64,000 bases of DNA from a bacterium (GTDB lineage Bacteria > UBA8248), in contig OZ242260.1 in NCBI GenBank assembly GCA_965207065.1, forward strand, positions 192,001 through 256,000. Direction: 5' to 3'. This document shows positions 18,128 through 25,457 of this stretch, piece by piece. Positions within the stretch are counted from its first letter, which is position 1; each line of letters begins with the position of its first letter. The position numbers and the translations under genes are program-made. The notes beneath the pieces are model-generated. The model was not told the DNA's origin. It ran no database searches and was given only the letters and a program-made list of their open reading frames with translations.

Positions 18128-19192
18128 TTGCGAATCGCTTTTCTGAACTCCTGGACCCTCGACGTCGCGAAAGGCTCGGGCACGGCGGCGGCCATCACGG
18201 GCCTGGCGGGCGGGCTGGAAGCAAACGGGCATACGGTGGAGATCATCGGCCCGGACGAGCGCGCATCGAGCCTTCTGCTCCAGAGGCTGCTGTATAATCT
18301 GGAGTTGAAGGACCGCATATCGCCCGATGATTTCGACCTCATCGTCGGCTTCGACATCGACGGCTTCGACCTGAGCATAACAGTCCCCTTCATCGTCTAT
18401 CTGCACGGAATCTCGGCCGACGAGATGCGATTCGAGCGCGGCGCGCCTCGCCAGTACCTGCGCGCGCTCTCCCATCTCGAACGCGCCAACGCGCATCGCG
18501 CCGACAGGGTCATCGTCACCAGCGAATACAGCCGGGGCGTGGCCTGTGAGGCGTATGGACTGCCGGCGGAGAAAGTCGGCGTCGTGGGAAACGGAATCCA
18601 TCCGGCCCATTGGGAGCGCGTGAGTGAGTTGAGGCGTCCGGCAGGCCGCACCATCCTCTCGGTGGCGCGTCAATACCCCAGGAAGAACACCAGGAGCCTC
18701 GTGGGGGCCATGCCGAGGGTGCTCGCGGCCGCGCCCGATGCGAAGTTGCGCGTCGTGGGCGGCGGCCCGGAATGGAAGAGCCTGGAAAAACAGGTAGACA
18801 GGCTGGGCCTCGGGACCGCCGTGACGCTTCTGGGCGAGGTGCCCGGCGACGAGGCCGTGCGCCGTGAATACGGGGCGGCGGACGTTTTCTGCCTGCCCTC
18901 GCTCCAGGAGGGCTTCGGCATCGCATATCTCGAAGCCATGGCGGCGGGCCTGCCCGTGGTGGCGCTCGACGTGGCGGCGGCGCCCGAGATTGTGGGGGAT
19001 GCGGGCGTCCTGCTGCCGCCGCCTGTGGATGAGGCCGCCCTGGCCGGCGCGCTCATCGACCTGCTGAAGAACCCGGCCTTGCGCGAAGAACTCGGCCGGC
19101 GCGGAGTCGAGCGCGCCGCCGCATACTCTTGGCGCGCCGTGGCCGGGCGCTTCATCCGGGAGGTCTCTCCCTGCCTGGGCGGCGCACCCTGA
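18128..19192 (+). CDS. Glycosyltransferase family 4
   Basis: NGI, VARQYPRKN and FCLPSLQEGFGIAYLEAMAAGLPVV. Confidence 0.92.
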   Translation: MRIAFLNSWTLDVAKGSGTAAAITGLAGGLEANGHTVEIIGPDERASSLLLQRLLYNLELKDRISPDDFDLIVGFDIDGFDLSITVPFIVYLHGISADEMRFERGAPRQYLRALSHLERANAHRADRVIVTSEYSRGVACEAYGLPAEKVGVVGNGIHPAHWERVSELRRPAGRTILSVARQYPRKNTRSLVGAMPRVLAAAPDAKLRVVGGGPEWKSLEKQVDRLGLGTAVTLLGEVPGDEAVRREYGAADVFCLPSLQEGFGIAYLEAMAAGLPVVALDVAAAPEIVGDAGVLLPPPVDEAALAGALIDLLKNPALREELGRRGVERAAAYSWRAVAGRFIREVSPCLGGAP

Positions 19193-19826
19193 CTCCCCGC
19201 GCCCCCGAATGCGGGCAGTTGCGGGGAGATGCGCGGTAGGCGAAAAACTTTATTTACCGCCATATCTGAGTGCAGGACGCTAAGATTTACATGGCAACCC
19301 TTTTGATTACAACCACTTGCAGGAGCACAACATTTCAGGAATTTATCGAAAAACCCCGTGAATTTATCTGAATTTATCGAAAATATGATTATTTGCATTT
19401 TCTTCGTCACGCCTGGGCCCACGAATACCCCTCCCCTGCTCATGGTGATGAAACCCGAGAGAGAATCGAGGCCGAACCAGGCCAATGCGGCTGAAACCGC
19501 CGTCATCACGCTCACCCCATCGCCTGAATCCATGAGAAAGCCTCCGCGTCTTTTGTCAATTCCGGCTGAGGAAGAAGGAATTGACCGAATCATGCGGGAA
19601 AATCGTTTTCCCGCGCCTGGCGCACGATAACAGAGGGCGGGGTTGCAGGAAGTACGGCAATTGCGGGGAAATGCGGGTCAAAGCTGGAGGGAGACAGAGT
19701 TTACGTCTTAGTAGGGGCGGCTCGCGAGCCGCCCGAATTCTTTTGAAGTTTTCGTCATTCCCGCGAATGAAGGTGAGAATCGACAGGTTGACCAGAATCA
19801 ACGTGTTACTCGTGAACGTAGAGCTT

Positions 19827-19953
19827 CCGTAGTGGTGTCGGACTTCCTCGAGGAGGGGGAGTTCGAGCGTGTCCGCCCTATGGCGTTAGAGGGGAAAGAC
19901 ACCGTAGGGGTGTCGAGCTTCCCCGATGAAGGGGAGTTCGAAAGCGTCCGCCC
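19827..19953 (+). repeat. Two tandem ~52-bp GTAG-type REP-like units (19827-19878, 19902-19953)
   Basis: CCGTAG(T/G)GGTGTCG..CTTCC..GA.GA.GGGGAGTTCGA..G.GTCCGCCC; an inverted copy lies at 23941-23989 and a further relative near 57044-57080. Confidence 0.7.
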
Positions 19954-20056
19954 ACACCCCCCTCGCCTGCTTCCAGCTGTTCGTTGATTCGGAGGGAGAA
20001 GGTGGGGCAGGCTTAGTAAGAAGTAGACAATCGCCATTCTCACTAATAACTATAAT

Positions 20057-21019
20057 CTATTCATTACCATAGTCTGGTTCATATTCAGCCTCTCGTTCTT
20101 CTGTTTCAAAATGTTCCGTCTCCAAGCCAGCCACTTCAATTTCTGCTTGGTTTACTAAGTGAAGTTCACAAACAGCGCAGTAAAATTCTTCTGCAACAAA
20201 GCATTTCTCAACAATTTCCCACAATCCCCCCCACCAATCCTCTCCCACATCAGAGATTGCGTCTACGACAATTTCTTCTCCATATTGTATTCCCGCCATA
20301 AACGCCTTTCCTTCGCAAGCGGGACATTTCAATTCCCAATCCGCATCAGATATGAGCGTGAAAAAATCGCGATACTGAAATACGCTTTTGGTCTCGGCGT
20401 CAGCAAGGGCTTTCTCACGGTCTCGTTTATTCTTTTTCTTAAACTCATTTGCTGCATATTCGATCTTGGTCTTAACGGCATCTCTAATTGCTTCTTGAGC
20501 TTGTTTGACAATCTCTTTGGGGGCCTTAGCTCGGTCGGCTCCTAACCATTCATCTAATGAAGAAAATGATATCTCTAATATTAGTTGAATAGCATGCCAG
20601 TAATGACGCTCCCAAGCCTCTAATTTCATGTTTTGAAATGGAACTTCACCAGAATGCAATTCTGCATTTCTCCTGTGAGAAATCGCATCGCAAAACTTTT
20701 TTACATTCTCATCGAATTTCTTTGACAAGCGACGTAGCCGTTCGAATAGTGTTTTAGCTGTGATCGTCTTTATATCGGTACTAATGTTTATACCCGATGC
20801 AGCAAAAAGTGACTGGTAATGAGTAGGATCGACTATCAAACTAGGATGAATCGAAGATAGCGTAGACTTGCCCAGCAATTCGATCGAAAGCGAAGCCCAA
20901 AGCTGGTATTGATCTAAATCTCCTTGACTCTTACATCGAAGCGCCCTCTGTATATAAACTTTAGATTTTCCTAGTAACGCTTCTTTCTCTATCGCTAATT
21001 GTAGATTACCCTTTTTCAT
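20057..21019 (-). CDS. Putative HEPN-domain protein with C-terminal Zn ribbon (320 aa)
   Basis: Helical N-terminus with SIELLGK and the RxxxxH motif RRNAELH; CPAC...CAVC pair; acidic tail; ATG at 21019 overlaps the upstream stop (ATGA). Confidence 0.65.
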   Translation of the reverse strand: MKKGNLQLAIEKEALLGKSKVYIQRALRCKSQGDLDQYQLWASLSIELLGKSTLSSIHPSLIVDPTHYQSLFAASGINISTDIKTITAKTLFERLRRLSKKFDENVKKFCDAISHRRNAELHSGEVPFQNMKLEAWERHYWHAIQLILEISFSSLDEWLGADRAKAPKEIVKQAQEAIRDAVKTKIEYAANEFKKKNKRDREKALADAETKSVFQYRDFFTLISDADWELKCPACEGKAFMAGIQYGEEIVVDAISDVGEDWWGGLWEIVEKCFVAEEFYCAVCELHLVNQAEIEVAGLETEHFETEEREAEYEPDYGNE

Positions 21020-21738
21020 TGAACGTACACCCTGAGAAGTAAACGATCCGTTGTAGTATTCAACTGCTCTCCACGACCGTGGAGAACGCGCCAATTATCA
21101 ATAACAAGCACATCACCAATACACCAAGATATTTTATTGAGTTGATGCTTCTGTTTGACATAGCTGTAGAGTTCCATCGCTACTTTACTTTCTTCGTTAA
21201 TAGCCACCATACAACCAGGATCGAGGCGGATAAATTTTCGCTGAGTTGATAAAATGCTTGAATAAAAGGATCTCCGTCCATTTTTAATCAGGAATACTGA
21301 TGACTGAACTAATGTCCGTTCCTCTGGAGATAAAATTATTTCAGAAGTATCAAGTAACAACGTAGATGTAGGGATAGCCCCAGGATTGACACAACCAAGA
21401 AACATATAACGACAAGGAACGCGCCAATGACTGGTATCACAATGCAAGGGGAATGGTGCTAAACTATATCTCCCGCTTAATGAATTCGGGTTTCCCGTTT
21501 CTGCATGTCGGGGAGAGAGTTTTTCGACGACCCCAAATTTATGACGAAAGGGTTCTCCGATGCGAGAAGCAACAGTTTCCAGAAATTCTGCTAGCTCATC
21601 AGGATCGCTAATGCCAGCCGATGTCTTAGCCCAGCCTTTACGTTGTAACTCTTCGAGAAAGCTTGACTCAGAATGCTCGAACCATTCTTTTATACGCAAA
21701 CCCAATGCTAAGTTCTCACTACACATAAGAAACACCAC
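21016..21738 (-). CDS. TauD/TfdA-like 2-oxoglutarate/Fe(II) dioxygenase (compact; start 21738 or 21726)
   Basis: FPLHCDT (HxD), GDVLVIDNWRVLHGR (distal His) and RLLLRVY (2OG-binding Arg). Confidence 0.85.
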   Translation of the reverse strand: MVFLMCSENLALGLRIKEWFEHSESSFLEELQRKGWAKTSAGISDPDELAEFLETVASRIGEPFRHKFGVVEKLSPRHAETGNPNSLSGRYSLAPFPLHCDTSHWRVPCRYMFLGCVNPGAIPTSTLLLDTSEIILSPEERTLVQSSVFLIKNGRRSFYSSILSTQRKFIRLDPGCMVAINEESKVAMELYSYVKQKHQLNKISWCIGDVLVIDNWRVLHGRGEQLNTTTDRLLLRVYVQ

Positions 21739-21945
21739 CCGCTCTGGCCTGCTACACCTCGTCTATGTCGGACCGTTAATTCATTTCCAATCTCGTCCGC
21801 TCATAGCTCTGTAAAGACTGGCAACGTCCCGGATGAAATCTCTCCCTGCATGAAGGGATGTACACCCCATTTCACCACTGAAGGCTTTTGGGGTATCGAC
21901 GCGCCATGACCATTTCCTATTATGCAACTAAATTGAAAGGATTAC

Positions 21946-22290
21946 TTAGTCTGGAAATGCGCGAATGAACGTAATAACAAGAGCAACCTTCCCTAGCGGT
22001 GTTTCTACCTGCACAATTTCACCAGCAGCATCTCTAGGCAAGGAAAATTCAACCACAAACTCTATTCCGCCAGACGGTGCAAAATATCCTTGTACTAATT
22101 GGATGCCCTCTGGAATCTTGACTGTAATTTTGAAATCAAACTTCTGCTTCTCTGTATTCTACACGTAGCTTCCATCGTACTCGCCGCCTGCTGAGTCTGC
22201 TCCGATGACCATGTTAGTATCCAAAACAATGACCCCGGCACCAAATCCAGCTGAGCCTGCGTACTCAATTTTATAAAAACCTTCCCTCAC
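21946..22290 (-). pseudogene. GrlR-like beta-barrel protein with in-frame TAG at 22159-22161
   Basis: RBS AGAGGAG, GTG start; MREGFYKIEYAGSAGFGAGVIVLDTNMVIGADSAGGEYDGSYV*NTEKQKFDFKITVKIPEG...FPD* (115 codons in one frame). Not in the ORF track. Confidence 0.65.
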
Positions 22291-22549
22291 ACGAATTCTC
22301 CTCTAAGGAAACGCTAAATGAACGACCTTACGGTATCATGTCCTAATGTTCATCTACAATTTTGAACTCTTACTTTATGATAGATTAAATTGACTTAGGG
22401 GATTTTTTACTACCTCCTCAACCTCTCCGCTGAAATCCGTGATGCCAACACATGCCCCCGAAACGAGAGAAGAAACCATCCAGCTCAGAATAGCGATTGA
22501 CAAGCAACGCTTGACAGTCGACTATCACTGCATGAAGAAGAAACCCCCC

Positions 22550-22843
22550 ATGCCCATGAAGAATCCACCGCATCCCGGCAAGGTCGTGCGCGTATCGTGT
22601 CTGGAGCCGCTGGGCCTGAGCGTGACCGAAGGCGCCAGGGCGCTGGGCGTCAGCCGCCAGGCGCTCTCGAACCTGGTGAACGGGCGCGCGCGGGTGTCGA
22701 GCGAGATGGCGATTCGCCTCGCCAAAGCCTTCGGCTCGACGACGGAGACCTGGATACGCCTCCAGACGGCCTACGACATCGCCCAGGCGCTTGAGCGTGA
22801 GGATGAAATCAAGGTCGAGCGCTACGAGCCGCAACCGGCGTGA
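22550..22843 (+). CDS. higA: HigA-family antitoxin (orphan)
   Basis: [59 protein letters not shown]. Confidence 0.92.
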
Positions 22844-22919
22844 GGCGAGGTTATTGAAAAAGCCCCCTTTCAAGGGGTAGAAGCGATACCCCCACCCGCT
22901 CGGAGCCGATCAAACACCC

Positions 22920-23104
22920 CAAGATCCAATCTCGCTGAGGAATTACCGGGAGTTCGGTTGAGCAGAAAGCAGAACAGCAGGGTGACGATCGCCCGCGCTA
23001 GTCGGCCGCGTCCTCGCCTCGGGCGTGCGCCAGCTCGCGCGCGCTCGGGTTGACCGACGGGCGGAAGGGGACCTCGCAGACCTCGGCGCGGTCGGGCCGC
23101 CCCG
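22920..23104 (-). pseudogene. Displaced diverged copy of the 3' end (last ~35 codons plus downstream) of the 24095-25399 gene
   Basis: Direct repeat of 24017-24201 (offset 1097); encodes PDRAEVCEVPFRPSVNPSARELAHARGEDAAD*. Confidence 0.9.
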
Positions 23105-23252
23105 ACACGGCGATAAGGATTGCGAGGTTCATCCCTACGACGCGGAGAATTGGAGCCGCGTCGGGGAAATGATAGGATGGGTCGCTCCGCGAGGCTCCAT
23201 TCCAGACCCCACAAGGAAAACGGACGATGCAAAGCGTTGAGAGACTCGCGCC

Positions 23253-23747
23253 ATGAAGCCCACCGCATACATCGAAACATCGGTTATCAGCTATCTCACT
23301 GCGCGACCATCCCGCGATGTCGTGGTCGCAGCGTATCAGGAAATAACACGCGAGTGGTGGCGAGATGCGCCGGACAGATTCGCTCTCGTCGCCTCGGCGC
23401 TCGTCGTCGCGGAAGCCGGAGCGGGCGACAAGGATACGGCCCACTCCCGCATGATGGCCCTCGAAGGCGTTGCGCTTCTTGATGCAACCCTGGACGCCGA
23501 GGAACTCACCCGGAACCTGCTTGATTTCGGGACGCTTCCGCGCCAAGCCGTCGATGATGCCGCGCACATCGCCATTGCCGTTACGAATGGCGTCGATTAT
23601 CTGGTAACATGGAATTTCCGGCACATTGCGAATGCCGCAATGCGAGGCCGGATCGAGCGCGTATGCAGAGAGTCGGGTTATGAACCGCCCGTCATATGCA
23701 CGCCCAACGAACTGATGGAGGCCGACCGTGCGGACAACGCAGACTGA
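23253..23747 (+). CDS. PIN-domain (VapC-like) toxin
   Basis: AYIETSVISYL, DDAAHIAIA and DYLVTWNFRHIAN. Confidence 0.9.
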   Translation: MKPTAYIETSVISYLTARPSRDVVVAAYQEITREWWRDAPDRFALVASALVVAEAGAGDKDTAHSRMMALEGVALLDATLDAEELTRNLLDFGTLPRQAVDDAAHIAIAVTNGVDYLVTWNFRHIANAAMRGRIERVCRESGYEPPVICTPNELMEADRADNAD

Positions 23748-23922
23748 CCCCATAATCGCCGAGGTCCGGGCCGCGCGGGATGCGCACGCGGCGCGCTTCG
23801 GTTACGACGTGGCGGATATTTTCCGGGACATTCGGGCCATGCAGGACGCATCCGGTTCCGAATACGTCCGCCGTCCCGCGCGCCGCGTCACCGCCATACC
23901 CGACGATTCACCATCGCCGTAA
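23728..23922 (+). CDS. Small putative antitoxin partner of the PIN protein
   Basis: DPIIAEVRAARDAHAARFGYDVADIFRDIR, typical of small genes downstream of this PIN subfamily; overlaps the toxin stop. Confidence 0.7.
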   Translation: MRTTQTDPIIAEVRAARDAHAARFGYDVADIFRDIRAMQDASGSEYVRRPARRVTAIPDDSPSP

Positions 23923-24094
23923 TGCCCGGCGCGGACGACCGGGCGGATACGATCGAACTTCTCTTCCTCAGGAAGCTCGACACCCCTACAAAACCCTCCA
24001 TCTCCCATCACCCCCGCAAGACCCGATCTCGGTGAGGATTCGCCGGGAGTTCGGTTGAGCGGACAGCAGAACAGCAGGGTGACGATCGCCGGTG

Positions 24095-25399
24095 CTAGTC
24101 GGCCGCGTCCTCTCCCCGGGCGTGCGCCAGTTCGCGCGCGCTCGGGTTGACCGACGGGCGGAAGGGGACCTCGCAGACCTCCGCGCGGTCAGGTTTCCCC
24201 GGCTCGCCGGCATACTCGTCCGGCAGCCAGACCAGCAGCTCGGTCCCGACCGCCGACTTGCCGACCGGCACGTAACCCAGCGCGATGTTGCACCCCAGCT
24301 CCGGGGCGTGCCACGGCGAAGTCAGGTAGCCGATCGGGTCGCCTCCGCCTGTATCCGAGACCAGCCAGAAGTCGGGCGCGTAGTCGTCGATCGGCTTGCC
24401 GCCCAGCTTCATGCCCACCATCACCATCGAGAACGGCGGACGCCCCGCGTCGATCTCGTCCCGCATCCGTTCGAGGGCCGCCCGGCCGATGTAGTCGCCC
24501 TTTTTCCTGCGCGGCACCTGATAGGCCAGGTTGCACTGAAAAGGCGCCGTCTCGTGGTCGATGTCCTGCCCCCAGGAGAGGATGCCGGCCTGGATGCGGC
24601 GCTGATGGCCGGGAGCGGTGACCATGAGCCGGTGCGGTTTGCCTGCGTCAATCACCGCGCGCCAGAGCTTCTCGGCGTGCAGGGTGGCGTCGCGCAGATA
24701 GATCTCATAACCCTTCTCTCCCGAAAAGCCGGTCTGGGTGACGACCACCGGGCAGCCCGCGACCTCGCCTTCGAGGACGCCGTAGTAGGGGATGTCCCGG
24801 ACGCCCTCGCCCAGTAAGTCGACCATCAGCGCGAGCGACTTCGGCCCCTGGATCTGGAGCGGGCAGACGTCGATCTCGTTGATCTCCACGTCCATCCGCT
24901 TCCCGACGTTGACGCCTTGCAGCCAGAACAGCAGGTCGGAGTCCGCCAGCGAGAACCAGAATTCCTCCTCGGCCAGGCGCAACAGGACCGGGTCGTTCAG
25001 AATCCCGCCCTTCTCGTTGCAGAGAATGACGTACTTCGCCTGCATCGGCCGGATGCGGGTCGCGTCGCGGGTGATGACGTAGTCGACGAACCGCTCCGCA
25101 TCCGGTCCCCTGACCTGGATCTGCCGCTCGACCGCGACGTTCCAGAGCGTCACGTGGTTCGTCAGCGCCTCGTGCTCGACGGCTGCGCCGCCCGCCTCCG
25201 GCCTCACGTAGCCGCGCGGATGGTAGACGCGGTTGTAGACCGTGGCCCGCCAGCAGCCCGCCTCGTGGGAGAGATGCCAGTAGGGCGACTTCCGCACCCG
25301 CGTGGAGATGAGCATCTCCACGGGCGTCCGACCACTCTGGCGCAGGTTGACGGGAACGATTCGGTCGGACTGGTCGACGCTGTGCGGCTGGCCGCTCAT
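24095..25399 (-). CDS. Folate-binding aminomethyltransferase (GcvT/DmdA-like) family protein
   Basis: GGILNDPVLLRL, LQIQGPKS, TGFSGEKGYEIY and RRIQAGILSWGQD; RBS AGGAG before ATG 25399. Confidence 0.9.
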   Translation of the reverse strand: MSGQPHSVDQSDRIVPVNLRQSGRTPVEMLISTRVRKSPYWHLSHEAGCWRATVYNRVYHPRGYVRPEAGGAAVEHEALTNHVTLWNVAVERQIQVRGPDAERFVDYVITRDATRIRPMQAKYVILCNEKGGILNDPVLLRLAEEEFWFSLADSDLLFWLQGVNVGKRMDVEINEIDVCPLQIQGPKSLALMVDLLGEGVRDIPYYGVLEGEVAGCPVVVTQTGFSGEKGYEIYLRDATLHAEKLWRAVIDAGKPHRLMVTAPGHQRRIQAGILSWGQDIDHETAPFQCNLAYQVPRRKKGDYIGRAALERMRDEIDAGRPPFSMVMVGMKLGGKPIDDYAPDFWLVSDTGGGDPIGYLTSPWHAPELGCNIALGYVPVGKSAVGTELLVWLPDEYAGEPGKPDRAEVCEVPFRPSVNPSARELAHARGEDAAD

Positions 25400-25457
25400 G
25401 GCTTCTCCTGCTCCGCCGCGCCTTAGGACTTTCCGGCGCGGCAAACGCTCGCTCCCC

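Follow-up and report, generated by a model that had tools for sequence, protein, structure and literature searches.

A 64,000-nucleotide stretch of bacterial DNA (assembly GCA_965207065.1, contig OZ242260.1, positions 192,001 to 256,000; lineage UBA8248), hereafter the window, carries in an AT-rich islet a pair of genes that we call A and B. Gene A encodes a TauD/TfdA-type dioxygenase predicted to depend on Fe(II) and 2-oxoglutarate (2OG), and gene B encodes a protein with a predicted HEPN domain, as found in HEPN ribonucleases (RNases), followed by a zinc-ribbon-like domain. An earlier note made from the letters of the window (the original prediction) had proposed the pair as a candidate defence or toxin–antitoxin system, and the two minus-strand genes, the ATGA overlap at 21016–21019 and the AT-rich DNA that it described were all seen in the sequence (Table 1). 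We propose that the pair is a self-contained, mobile two-gene toxin–antitoxin or abortive-infection module, made up of a HEPN RNase effector and a dioxygenase controller, a reading whose chances we judge to be even. As a conflict module the pair is a well-supported candidate, the support, which is indirect, including obligate pairing of the two genes, asymmetric decay and a mobile or defence-related context.

Relatives of gene B were collected by scanning one genome per species (185,579 species) with two peptide patterns only, which gave 163 confirmed relatives. The locus counts that follow rest on the best 80 of these 163, and the alignments on 80 gene A and 81 gene B sequences. In all but one of the 80 loci (79) tblastn found a gene A homologue directly upstream of gene B and in the same orientation, so the homologues do co-occur, a point on which the original prediction depended. 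The stop/start overlap between the two genes was 4 nucleotides (nt) in 24 loci and 8 nt in 15, other values being inflated by the use of longest-open-reading-frame starts. When all open reading frames (ORFs) of at least 70 amino acids from the 80 loci were clustered all against all, only genes A and B were widespread (79 and 80 loci, respectively); the next clusters were antisense shadows of these two or genes of at most 8–9 closely related loci, and no conserved third gene was found beside the pair in the 80 loci. The pairwise distances of gene A and of gene B were correlated with r = 0.90 over 77 gene pairs, and the two genes are therefore inherited as a unit.

The hosts span at least seven phyla and comprise Alpha-, Beta- and Gammaproteobacteria, Bdellovibrionota/Oligoflexia, Verrucomicrobiota, Planctomycetota, Gemmatimonadota, Armatimonadota and Leptospiraceae; Bacillota, Bacteroidota and archaea were not represented among the best 80 loci of this two-pattern scan. 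On plasmids of Streptomyces (Actinomycetota) and Acinetobacter, a gene B relative of only 24–28% identity still lies beside a gene named ‘TauD/TfdA family dioxygenase’. As judged from these sequences, the pairing of A and B is obligate and ancient. Nearly all of the hosts belong to aerobic or microaerophilic lineages, which fits an O2-dependent function.

Decay at the damaged loci was asymmetric. Two loci (L051 and L066) had lost most or all of the dioxygenase gene, and in both the HEPN gene was also truncated, while at a third (L061) the dioxygenase gene was kept and the HEPN gene was split by an insertion. Wherever the HEPN gene is intact among the 80 loci, the dioxygenase gene is intact too, that of L034 being cut only by the end of the contig. 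This asymmetry, seen in three cases only, is the pattern expected if the HEPN protein were harmful without its partner.

The identity of gene A as a TauD/TfdA-family Fe(II)/2OG dioxygenase, with a full catalytic set and under purifying selection, was confirmed by sequence comparison and structure prediction. The protein scores 56.3 bits (E = 6e-15) with the Pfam TauD family PF02668, for which the cutoff is 27. Its AlphaFold2 model, for which 27 partners of gene B homologues were used, has a pLDDT of 93.3, and Foldseek gave 288 PDB matches to it at E ≤ 1e-3, all of those among the matches listed coming from the TauD/TfdA superfamily. The top match was BBOX1 (3ms5, E = 4.7e-14, TM 0.73 on the query), with TmpA, clavaminate synthase, PvcB, NapI, AsnO, KDO1, OrfP and VioC also among the top matches, and a profile of 27 gene A sequences matched NapI (6daw) at E = 3.4e-14 and clavaminate synthase 1 at E = 9.9e-13. 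Because the closest matches by both structure and profile are oxygenases of this kind, gene A is placed by its sequence and predicted fold in the clavaminate-synthase-like, amino-acid-oxygenase part of the superfamily, as a compact member: its subfamily is mostly 214–235 amino acids long, against 259–386 for the matched structures.

The compact dioxygenase with an HxD...H...R set that had been described earlier thus stands (H99, D101, H220 and R232), whereas the start that had been assigned to it probably does not. The longest ORF begins with GTG at 21738 and encodes 240 amino acids; the start is probably the ATG at 21726, giving 236 amino acids, since the public gene call (P0271) has that length and relatives align only from about residue 32. 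R232 aligns with the C-terminal Arg of NapI and clavaminate synthase. Beyond the residues in Table 1, N215, W216, R222 and R236 are each present in all 80 sequences and T126, which may bind 2OG as in Escherichia coli TauD, in 78. At iron ligand 101, 52 sequences have D and 27 have E. The choice of D or E here tracks that of G or A at residue 124 of gene B, two residues past the putative catalytic His (52 D–G, 26 E–A and 1 E–G); this co-variation was discounted as evidence, as the E–A set looks like one clade and may reflect a single event.

The RefSeq name of the gene A relatives, ‘TauD/TfdA family dioxygenase’ (those of gene B are called ‘hypothetical protein’), and the Pfam match would also suit a metabolic enzyme of the TauD type, acting in sulfonate or amino-acid catabolism beside an unrelated or regulatory gene B. 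Gene A is, however, much shorter than TauD-type enzymes, and it reaches the cutoff of no NCBIfam equivalog, the best being GntD with 31.6 bits against a required 345. No transport or sulfonate gene was found in the islet, as the original prediction had said, and across the loci A and B alone recur, without any conserved transporter, sulfonate or catabolic gene near them. The neighbourhood data largely refute a metabolic role of this kind, to which we give hardly any credence.

Gene B belongs to a large family. A word-indexed search found 739 homologues at E ≤ 1e-3, and a profile run against a 50%-identity library matched 1325 clusters at E ≤ 1e-3, including 755 at E ≤ 1e-10; nearly all relatives are 300–330 amino acids long with an identical architecture. 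Because this family is large, and because the residues named here and in Table 1 are invariant or nearly so in 80–81 sequences, conservation indicates that genes A and B are not chance ORFs. Searches of Pfam, PADLOC and NCBIfam with gene B gave noise-level matches only and no family (HEPN_Apea, E = 0.41; PADLOC DUF3644, E = 0.032; HNH_I-A, E = 0.041). None of 42 divergent members had a significant Pfam match, HEPN_Apea being hit by three of them with a best E of 0.034. Against the PDB, phmmer returned nothing and a profile search nothing below E = 0.17, and in the ESM Atlas none of the 30 nearest clusters had a common Pfam family.

The AlphaFold2 model of gene B (pLDDT 85.9, pTM 0.78) has an N-terminal helical domain, a long helical linker (residues 168–210) and a C-terminal beta domain. 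When residues 6–157 were compared by VIA-align with 48,161 chains, the 12 best matches were all HEPN domains, with Z from 12.1 to 7.9, which answers the call of the original prediction for a check of the HEPN fold. The best was 2hsb (Z 12.1, root-mean-square deviation 3.1 over 124 aligned residues), followed by the sacsin HEPN domain 3o10 (Z 10.5), 4nqf (10.3), 1ufb (10.2) and 1wol (9.8). Structures of the HepT/MntA family scored 8.6 (7ae2), 8.1 (8xdj) and 7.9 (5yep), and AbiA 7.9 and AbiV 5.4, with Csm6, HepS and RnlA ranking lower too. Foldseek with the gene B model found nothing in the PDB at E ≤ 1e-3, the rows of highest probability being the HEPN domains of Csm6 and AF_0298.

Since helical bundles can reach Z values of ∼13 in VIA-align by arrangement alone, gene B was also checked for the motifs that define HEPN domains. 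In the HEPN survey (PMC3710099), helix 3 ends in an Rx4-6H motif whose R is followed by a polar residue (N, D or H), helix 2 carries a conserved acidic residue, typically within Ex3[KR], and an insert separates helices 2 and 3. The modelled helices of gene B span residues 12–31, 35–57, 104–123 and 133–150, the insert being 58–103, and the ELLGK (47–51) and RNAELH (117–122) motifs picked out by the original prediction lie in helix 2 and at the end of helix 3, respectively, so that gene B agrees with the survey's description (PMC3710099) in helix 2, helix 3 and insert. None of the 42 divergent members, the most distant at 23% identity, departs from E47 or R117, and the catalytic motifs of A and B alike are intact and under strong purifying selection. 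From the motifs and the model we conclude that the HEPN domain of gene B looks catalytically competent and that the gene represents a family without a curated model.

The second domain of gene B is probably zinc-ribbon-like in fold class, to judge by its Cys4 pattern, its predicted strands and weak matches to Pfam zinc ribbons, the only matches found there. The CPAC and CAVC pairs and the acidic tail were already part of the original prediction, and all are present. The four cysteines, placed on predicted beta hairpins, occur in 80, 81, 81 and 80 of the 81 sequences and are invariant in the 42 divergent members. The protein ends in EYEPDYGNE, the family pattern being ...E-x-x-Y-G-N-x, and endings of the type [DE][YF][GM]N are kept in many divergent members.

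The company that the pair keeps strongly suggests a conflict system. For the ORFs closest to the cassette on either side, comparison with Pfam covered 141 from 77 loci (13 of the 154 were omitted, 4 of them as duplicates). By our own classing of family names, with no random-gene control and no enrichment factor, ∼34 of the 77 loci adjoin a defence, toxin–antitoxin or mobile-element gene, in line with the defence-island context that the original prediction had looked for. Adjacent genes included type I restriction-modification subunits (L013, L022, L028 and L049), a type ISP enzyme (L073), GmrSD with Schlafen/AlbA_2 (L023), SIR2 (L029), a caspase (L022), ATPases of the OLD/Gabija type (L060 and L063), HerA (L032 and L052), HipA (L031 and L047), HicA (L006), YoeB (L065), Fic (L041), Abi_C (L064), DUF3644 (L035 and L040) and nSTAND3 (L036). 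Lamassu LmuA/B, Gabija GajA, Ppl/TrlF and AbiJ were also among the neighbours, as were integrases, a resolvase, IS66 and IS200 transposases and a conjugative coupling protein. PADLOC was run on a hand-picked set of 35 neighbours and matched 22 of them, with GajA (E = 3e-278), SngC (7e-234), HerA (1e-159), Ppl (9e-142) and LmuB (2e-114), and further strong or full-length matches to PDC-S11, PDC-S19, PDC-S01, Old and PDC-S31.

The cassette also has marks of mobility. In 63 of 76 loci its GC content was below that of the flanks, the difference exceeding 5 points in 24, and it was found on 37 plasmid records, of which 12 were conjugative, 5 mobilisable and 20 non-mobilisable. It was absent from all 50,697 phage records and present at only 4 loci in IMG/VR, and a phage-borne reading was dropped on these counts. 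On plasmid pSinA (NC_021209.1) the cassette lies amid DUF2326, TIGR02391, a TrlF-family ATPase and a GIY-YIG nuclease, and on Pseudomonas aeruginosa megaplasmids (NZ_CP073083.1) it again adjoins a TrlF-family ATPase. This AAA-like ATPase, of ∼950–990 amino acids and related to the anti-phage protein Ppl, adjoins the cassette in 9 of 80 loci, upstream in eight (L030, L039, L040, L044, L045, L053, L054 and L058) and downstream in one (L069), with a gap that is sometimes 10 nt. We judged it to be a neighbour rather than a third component, as only these nine of the 80 loci have it, eight of which are of one alphaproteobacterial island type.

The distribution bears as well on a different explanation, in which the pair has no part in conflict and acts in RNA processing or stress, for example as an RNase that adjusts translation in response to O2, iron or 2OG, its location in islands reflecting mere horizontal transfer. 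HEPN domains do serve in RNA processing too, according to the survey (PMC3710099), several loci have housekeeping neighbours only, and the aerobic or microaerophilic hosts would suit any O2-dependent role. Such a housekeeping function sits poorly with the sparse and patchy spread of the family (163 confirmed matches in 185,579 species genomes, in a pattern-limited scan), with its single copy here, with three same-genus genomes that lack the cassette at this site and with its carriage on plasmids, as well as with the repeated adjacency to restriction-modification, Gabija, Lamassu, OLD and toxin–antitoxin genes. We regard this explanation as quite improbable.

In the two-gene toxin–antitoxin or abortive-infection module that we propose, gene A would be translated first, coupled to gene B through the ATGA overlap, and would supply an active Fe(II)/2OG oxygenase as the cognate controller. 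Gene B would be the effector, a metal-independent HEPN endoribonuclease that, like HEPN RNases, is probably dimeric, and its zinc-ribbon domain and acidic tail would serve in substrate binding or regulation. The dioxygenase would bind the HEPN protein and keep it inactive, probably via hydroxylation of a side chain in the RNase or in its tail, and the RNase would be set free once O2, iron or 2OG ran short or the partner was no longer made, for instance on phage infection or loss of the element. The RNase activity, the toxicity, its neutralisation and the substrate of the dioxygenase are all points that we infer. That a 2OG/Fe(II) oxygenase acts here as an antitoxin by hydroxylating its HEPN partner, perhaps at an Arg near RRNAELH or, within the ...EYGN tail, at its invariant Asn or Tyr, would make this the first such family; we put it forward tentatively, as a proposal rather more apt to fail than to hold. 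The best-scoring gene A relatives act on arginine, asparagine and lysine, and for this reason a peptidyl Arg or Asn might be the protein substrate, with R116/R117 (by the active site) and N319 of the tail as candidates, which is speculation.

Structure prediction of the A–B complex gave a score of 0.45, against 0.00 for the best control. The mark applied to such predictions is reached by 116 of 157 solved complexes and by 2 of 215 mismatched pairs, and only 18 of the 157 solved complexes, together with both of the mismatches, reached it with a score of 0.60 or below. Agreement between the runs is at least 93% of contacts, and the partner has a pLDDT of at least 81. The prediction gives weak support to contact between A and B.

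Several observations weigh against our proposal. The low complex score comes without a reported interface. The classing of neighbours had no control, the PADLOC matches come from a selected set, and some loci have only housekeeping genes beside the cassette. No fused dioxygenase–HEPN protein was found among proteins of 561–2000 amino acids, although this is weak evidence. Lastly, the solved relatives of gene A all act on small molecules (gamma-butyrobetaine, arginine, lysine, asparagine and clavam precursors), and none is a protein hydroxylase.

Given these small-molecule substrates of all the solved relatives, another form of defence module is well alive, in which the target of the dioxygenase is a small molecule or nucleic acid and not the HEPN protein. 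The enzyme might produce or remove a signal, might oxidise a nucleotide modified by phage or, as a second effector, might use up 2OG or an amino acid such as arginine, with its chemistry triggering or assisting the RNase. The closest solved relatives are indeed oxygenases of free amino acids and betaine (NapI, clavaminate synthase, VioC, OrfP, AsnO, KDO1 and BBOX1), catalytic residues are kept in both enzymes, as expected with cellular or phage targets, and the defence-island context is shared equally by the two accounts. The strict 1:1 coupling, the co-varying divergence and the asymmetric decay nevertheless fit a direct toxin and neutraliser better; gene A has ∼215–235 amino acids, against 280–385 in its small-molecule relatives, so that their substrate lids are probably absent from it; and the complex prediction, though weak, points to contact between A and B. 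On this evidence we think action on a small molecule or nucleic acid unlikely.

The proposed HEPN effector with a dioxygenase controller has its nearest parallel in the HepT/MntA system. Type VII antitoxins modify their toxins, with MntA AMPylating HepT, TomB oxidising Hha and TakA phosphorylating TglT, as described in the text of PMC7641770. In HepT/MntA, as here, there are two genes, the modifier first and an Rx4H HEPN RNase second, and the antitoxin described there is a toxin-modifying enzyme (PMC7641770). The partner here is a TauD-fold dioxygenase and not a minimal nucleotidyltransferase (MNT), and the motif of gene B, RNAELHSG, lacks the Tyr of RX4HXY that MntA AMPylates according to the same text (PMC7641770). 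Gene B is also distinguished by its length of 320 amino acids, with an extra zinc-ribbon domain and an acidic tail. Since the partner is no nucleotidyltransferase and the motif has no target Tyr, the pair is not a member of the HepT/MntA family and would, by analogy, be type VII-like in logic at most.

With Hha/TomB the proposed module would share its oxidative logic, TomB being described as neutralising Hha by oxidation (PMC7641770). The protein families of that system are unrelated to genes A and B. TomB is not known to be a 2OG dioxygenase, nor Hha to be an RNase. HEPN RNase domains in defence islands are also found in ApeA, EC042_2821/DUF3644, AbiV, AbiJ and the C-terminal domain of AbiA, as set out in Table 1 of PMC3710099, but gene B has no significant match to these families and none of them is described with a dioxygenase partner. 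The main text of the same 2013 survey (PMC3710099) makes no mention of dioxygenase, 2OG, TauD or oxoglutarate. On the side of gene A, NapI, VioC, OrfP, AsnO, KDO1 and BBOX1 share its fold, the HxD/E...H triad and the C-terminal Arg (profile E from 3.4e-14 to 1e-5), whereas gene A is ∼100 residues shorter than these clavaminate-synthase-like oxygenases, with 14–20% identity, and is found here coupled to a HEPN gene and not in a biosynthetic cluster.

As the original prediction had supposed, the pair does not appear to be a named system. Gene A matched no family of PADLOC-DB v2.0.0 at E ≤ 1, gene B had no match there above noise, and no description of a HEPN–dioxygenase pairing was found in a literature search that lay outside supplements and subscription journals. 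A 2026 domain-centric defence screen contained no HEPN, dioxygenase, 2OG or TauD wording. We regard the pair as a candidate HEPN toxin module whose enzymatic partner is of a new class.

Table 1. Positions of the genes, domains and motifs of the dioxygenase–HEPN cassette in the window, with the basis of each assignment or its conservation
Feature	Position	Strand	Basis or conservation
AT-rich islet, 2.4 kb	20000..22420	.	GC 0.40–0.47; cassette plus 0.68 kb of non-conserved upstream DNA
Gene A, TauD/TfdA-fold Fe(II)/2OG dioxygenase	21016..21738	-	Pfam PF02668, AlphaFold2 model, Foldseek
Gene A H99-C-D101, iron-binding motif	21436..21444	-	H in 79/80, D or E in 79/80 sequences
Gene A H220, distal iron-binding His in DNWRVLHGR motif	21079..21081	-	H in 79/80
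Gene A R232, predicted 2OG-binding Arg	21043..21045	-	R in 80/80
ATGA stop/start overlap, gene A TGA with gene B ATG	21016..21019	-	Read in sequence
Gene B, 320-amino-acid HEPN and Cys4 zinc-ribbon-like protein with acidic C-terminal tail	20057..21019	-	Translation
Gene B predicted HEPN domain, residues ~6–157	20549..21004	-	AlphaFold2 model and VIA-align scan
Gene B E47-LLG-K51, Ex3K motif in helix 2 (35–57)	20867..20881	-	E 79/81, K or R 80/81
Gene B R117-N-A-E-L-H122, Rx4H motif ending helix 3 (104–123), followed by a loop	20654..20671	-	R, N and H each 81/81
Gene B Cys4 zinc-ribbon-like beta domain, residues ~226–310	20090..20344	-	Model strands, Cys conservation
Gene B CPAC, residues 232–235	20315..20326	-	Sequence
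Gene B CAVC, residues 281–284	20168..20179	-	Sequence
Gene B acidic C-terminal tail (...EREAEYEPDYGNE)	20060..20107	-	Y317 80/81, G318 77/81, N319 80/81

A composition profile of the window gave a GC content of 0.40–0.47 across 20000–22499, against 0.57–0.71 on both sides; for the genome the GC content is 62–70%. The DNA flanking the cassette (21739–22420 and 19701–20056) has no counterpart in the 80 related loci. A scan of 19700–22500 for promoters and terminators gave no excess over shuffled sequences and left the operon without any minus-strand site, and the islet ends showed no convincing terminal repeats, only imperfect matches of 17–18 nt. At the left border lie two GC-rich, tandem-like 52-nt repeats (19827–19878 and 19902–19953, 83% identity), with a perfect 19-nt inverted copy 4 kb away (23971–23989), which look like REP-type intergenic elements. 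The islet also contains a small minus-strand ORF (21946–22302) broken by an in-frame TAG at 22159–22161; neither half has a family, an Atlas match or a counterpart beside other cassettes.

The cassette is single-copy in this genome, and its closest relative is 68% identical at both the protein and the DNA level. It is located between a glycosyltransferase gene (18128–19192) and a GcvT-like gene (24095–25444, minus strand). Three complete genomes of the same genus (L097, L098 and L099) share the GcvT-like gene with ∼93% identity and none has the cassette there, the site being occupied instead by a 550-amino-acid Fic protein (two genomes), Ank/Sel1/FGE-sulfatase proteins, DUF6602, or a DruA-like protein with an IS66 transposase. 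Because the same interval holds different cargo in these three genomes, 19200–24095 is a variable insertion hotspot.

Two further elements were seen in this interval. An orphan HigA-family antitoxin gene (22439–22843, plus strand; TIGR02607, E = 1.6e-29, and Pfam HTH_3) has no HigB-like ORF upstream; the AT-rich islet abuts its 5′ side, and insertion of the islet may have displaced the toxin gene. Further on, a 196-nt direct repeat (22917–23112 and 24014–24209, 89% identity), which copies the 3′ end of the GcvT-like gene, brackets two overlapping plus-strand ORFs, 23253–23747 (164 amino acids) and 23728–23922 (64 amino acids), for which Pfam, NCBIfam and PADLOC gave no family. The arrangement resembles a small two-gene insertion with a duplicated target, possibly toxin–antitoxin-like.

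HEPN RNases are effectors in CRISPR systems (Cas13 and Csm6) and in abortive infection, and also in the most abundant predicted toxin–antitoxin family. A central question is what keeps them in check, and the coupling of genes A and B would add oxidative chemistry, dependent on O2, iron and 2OG, to the control of toxins. It would also give the TauD/clavaminate-synthase clade, so far known for small molecules, work directed at protein or RNA. If the oxygenase is indeed the antitoxin, the toxin would be off only while O2, iron and 2OG are present and the partner is made, a metabolic dead-man switch that would tie central metabolism to abortive infection or plasmid addiction. The gene B family merits a profile model of its own in tools for the annotation of defence and toxin–antitoxin systems.

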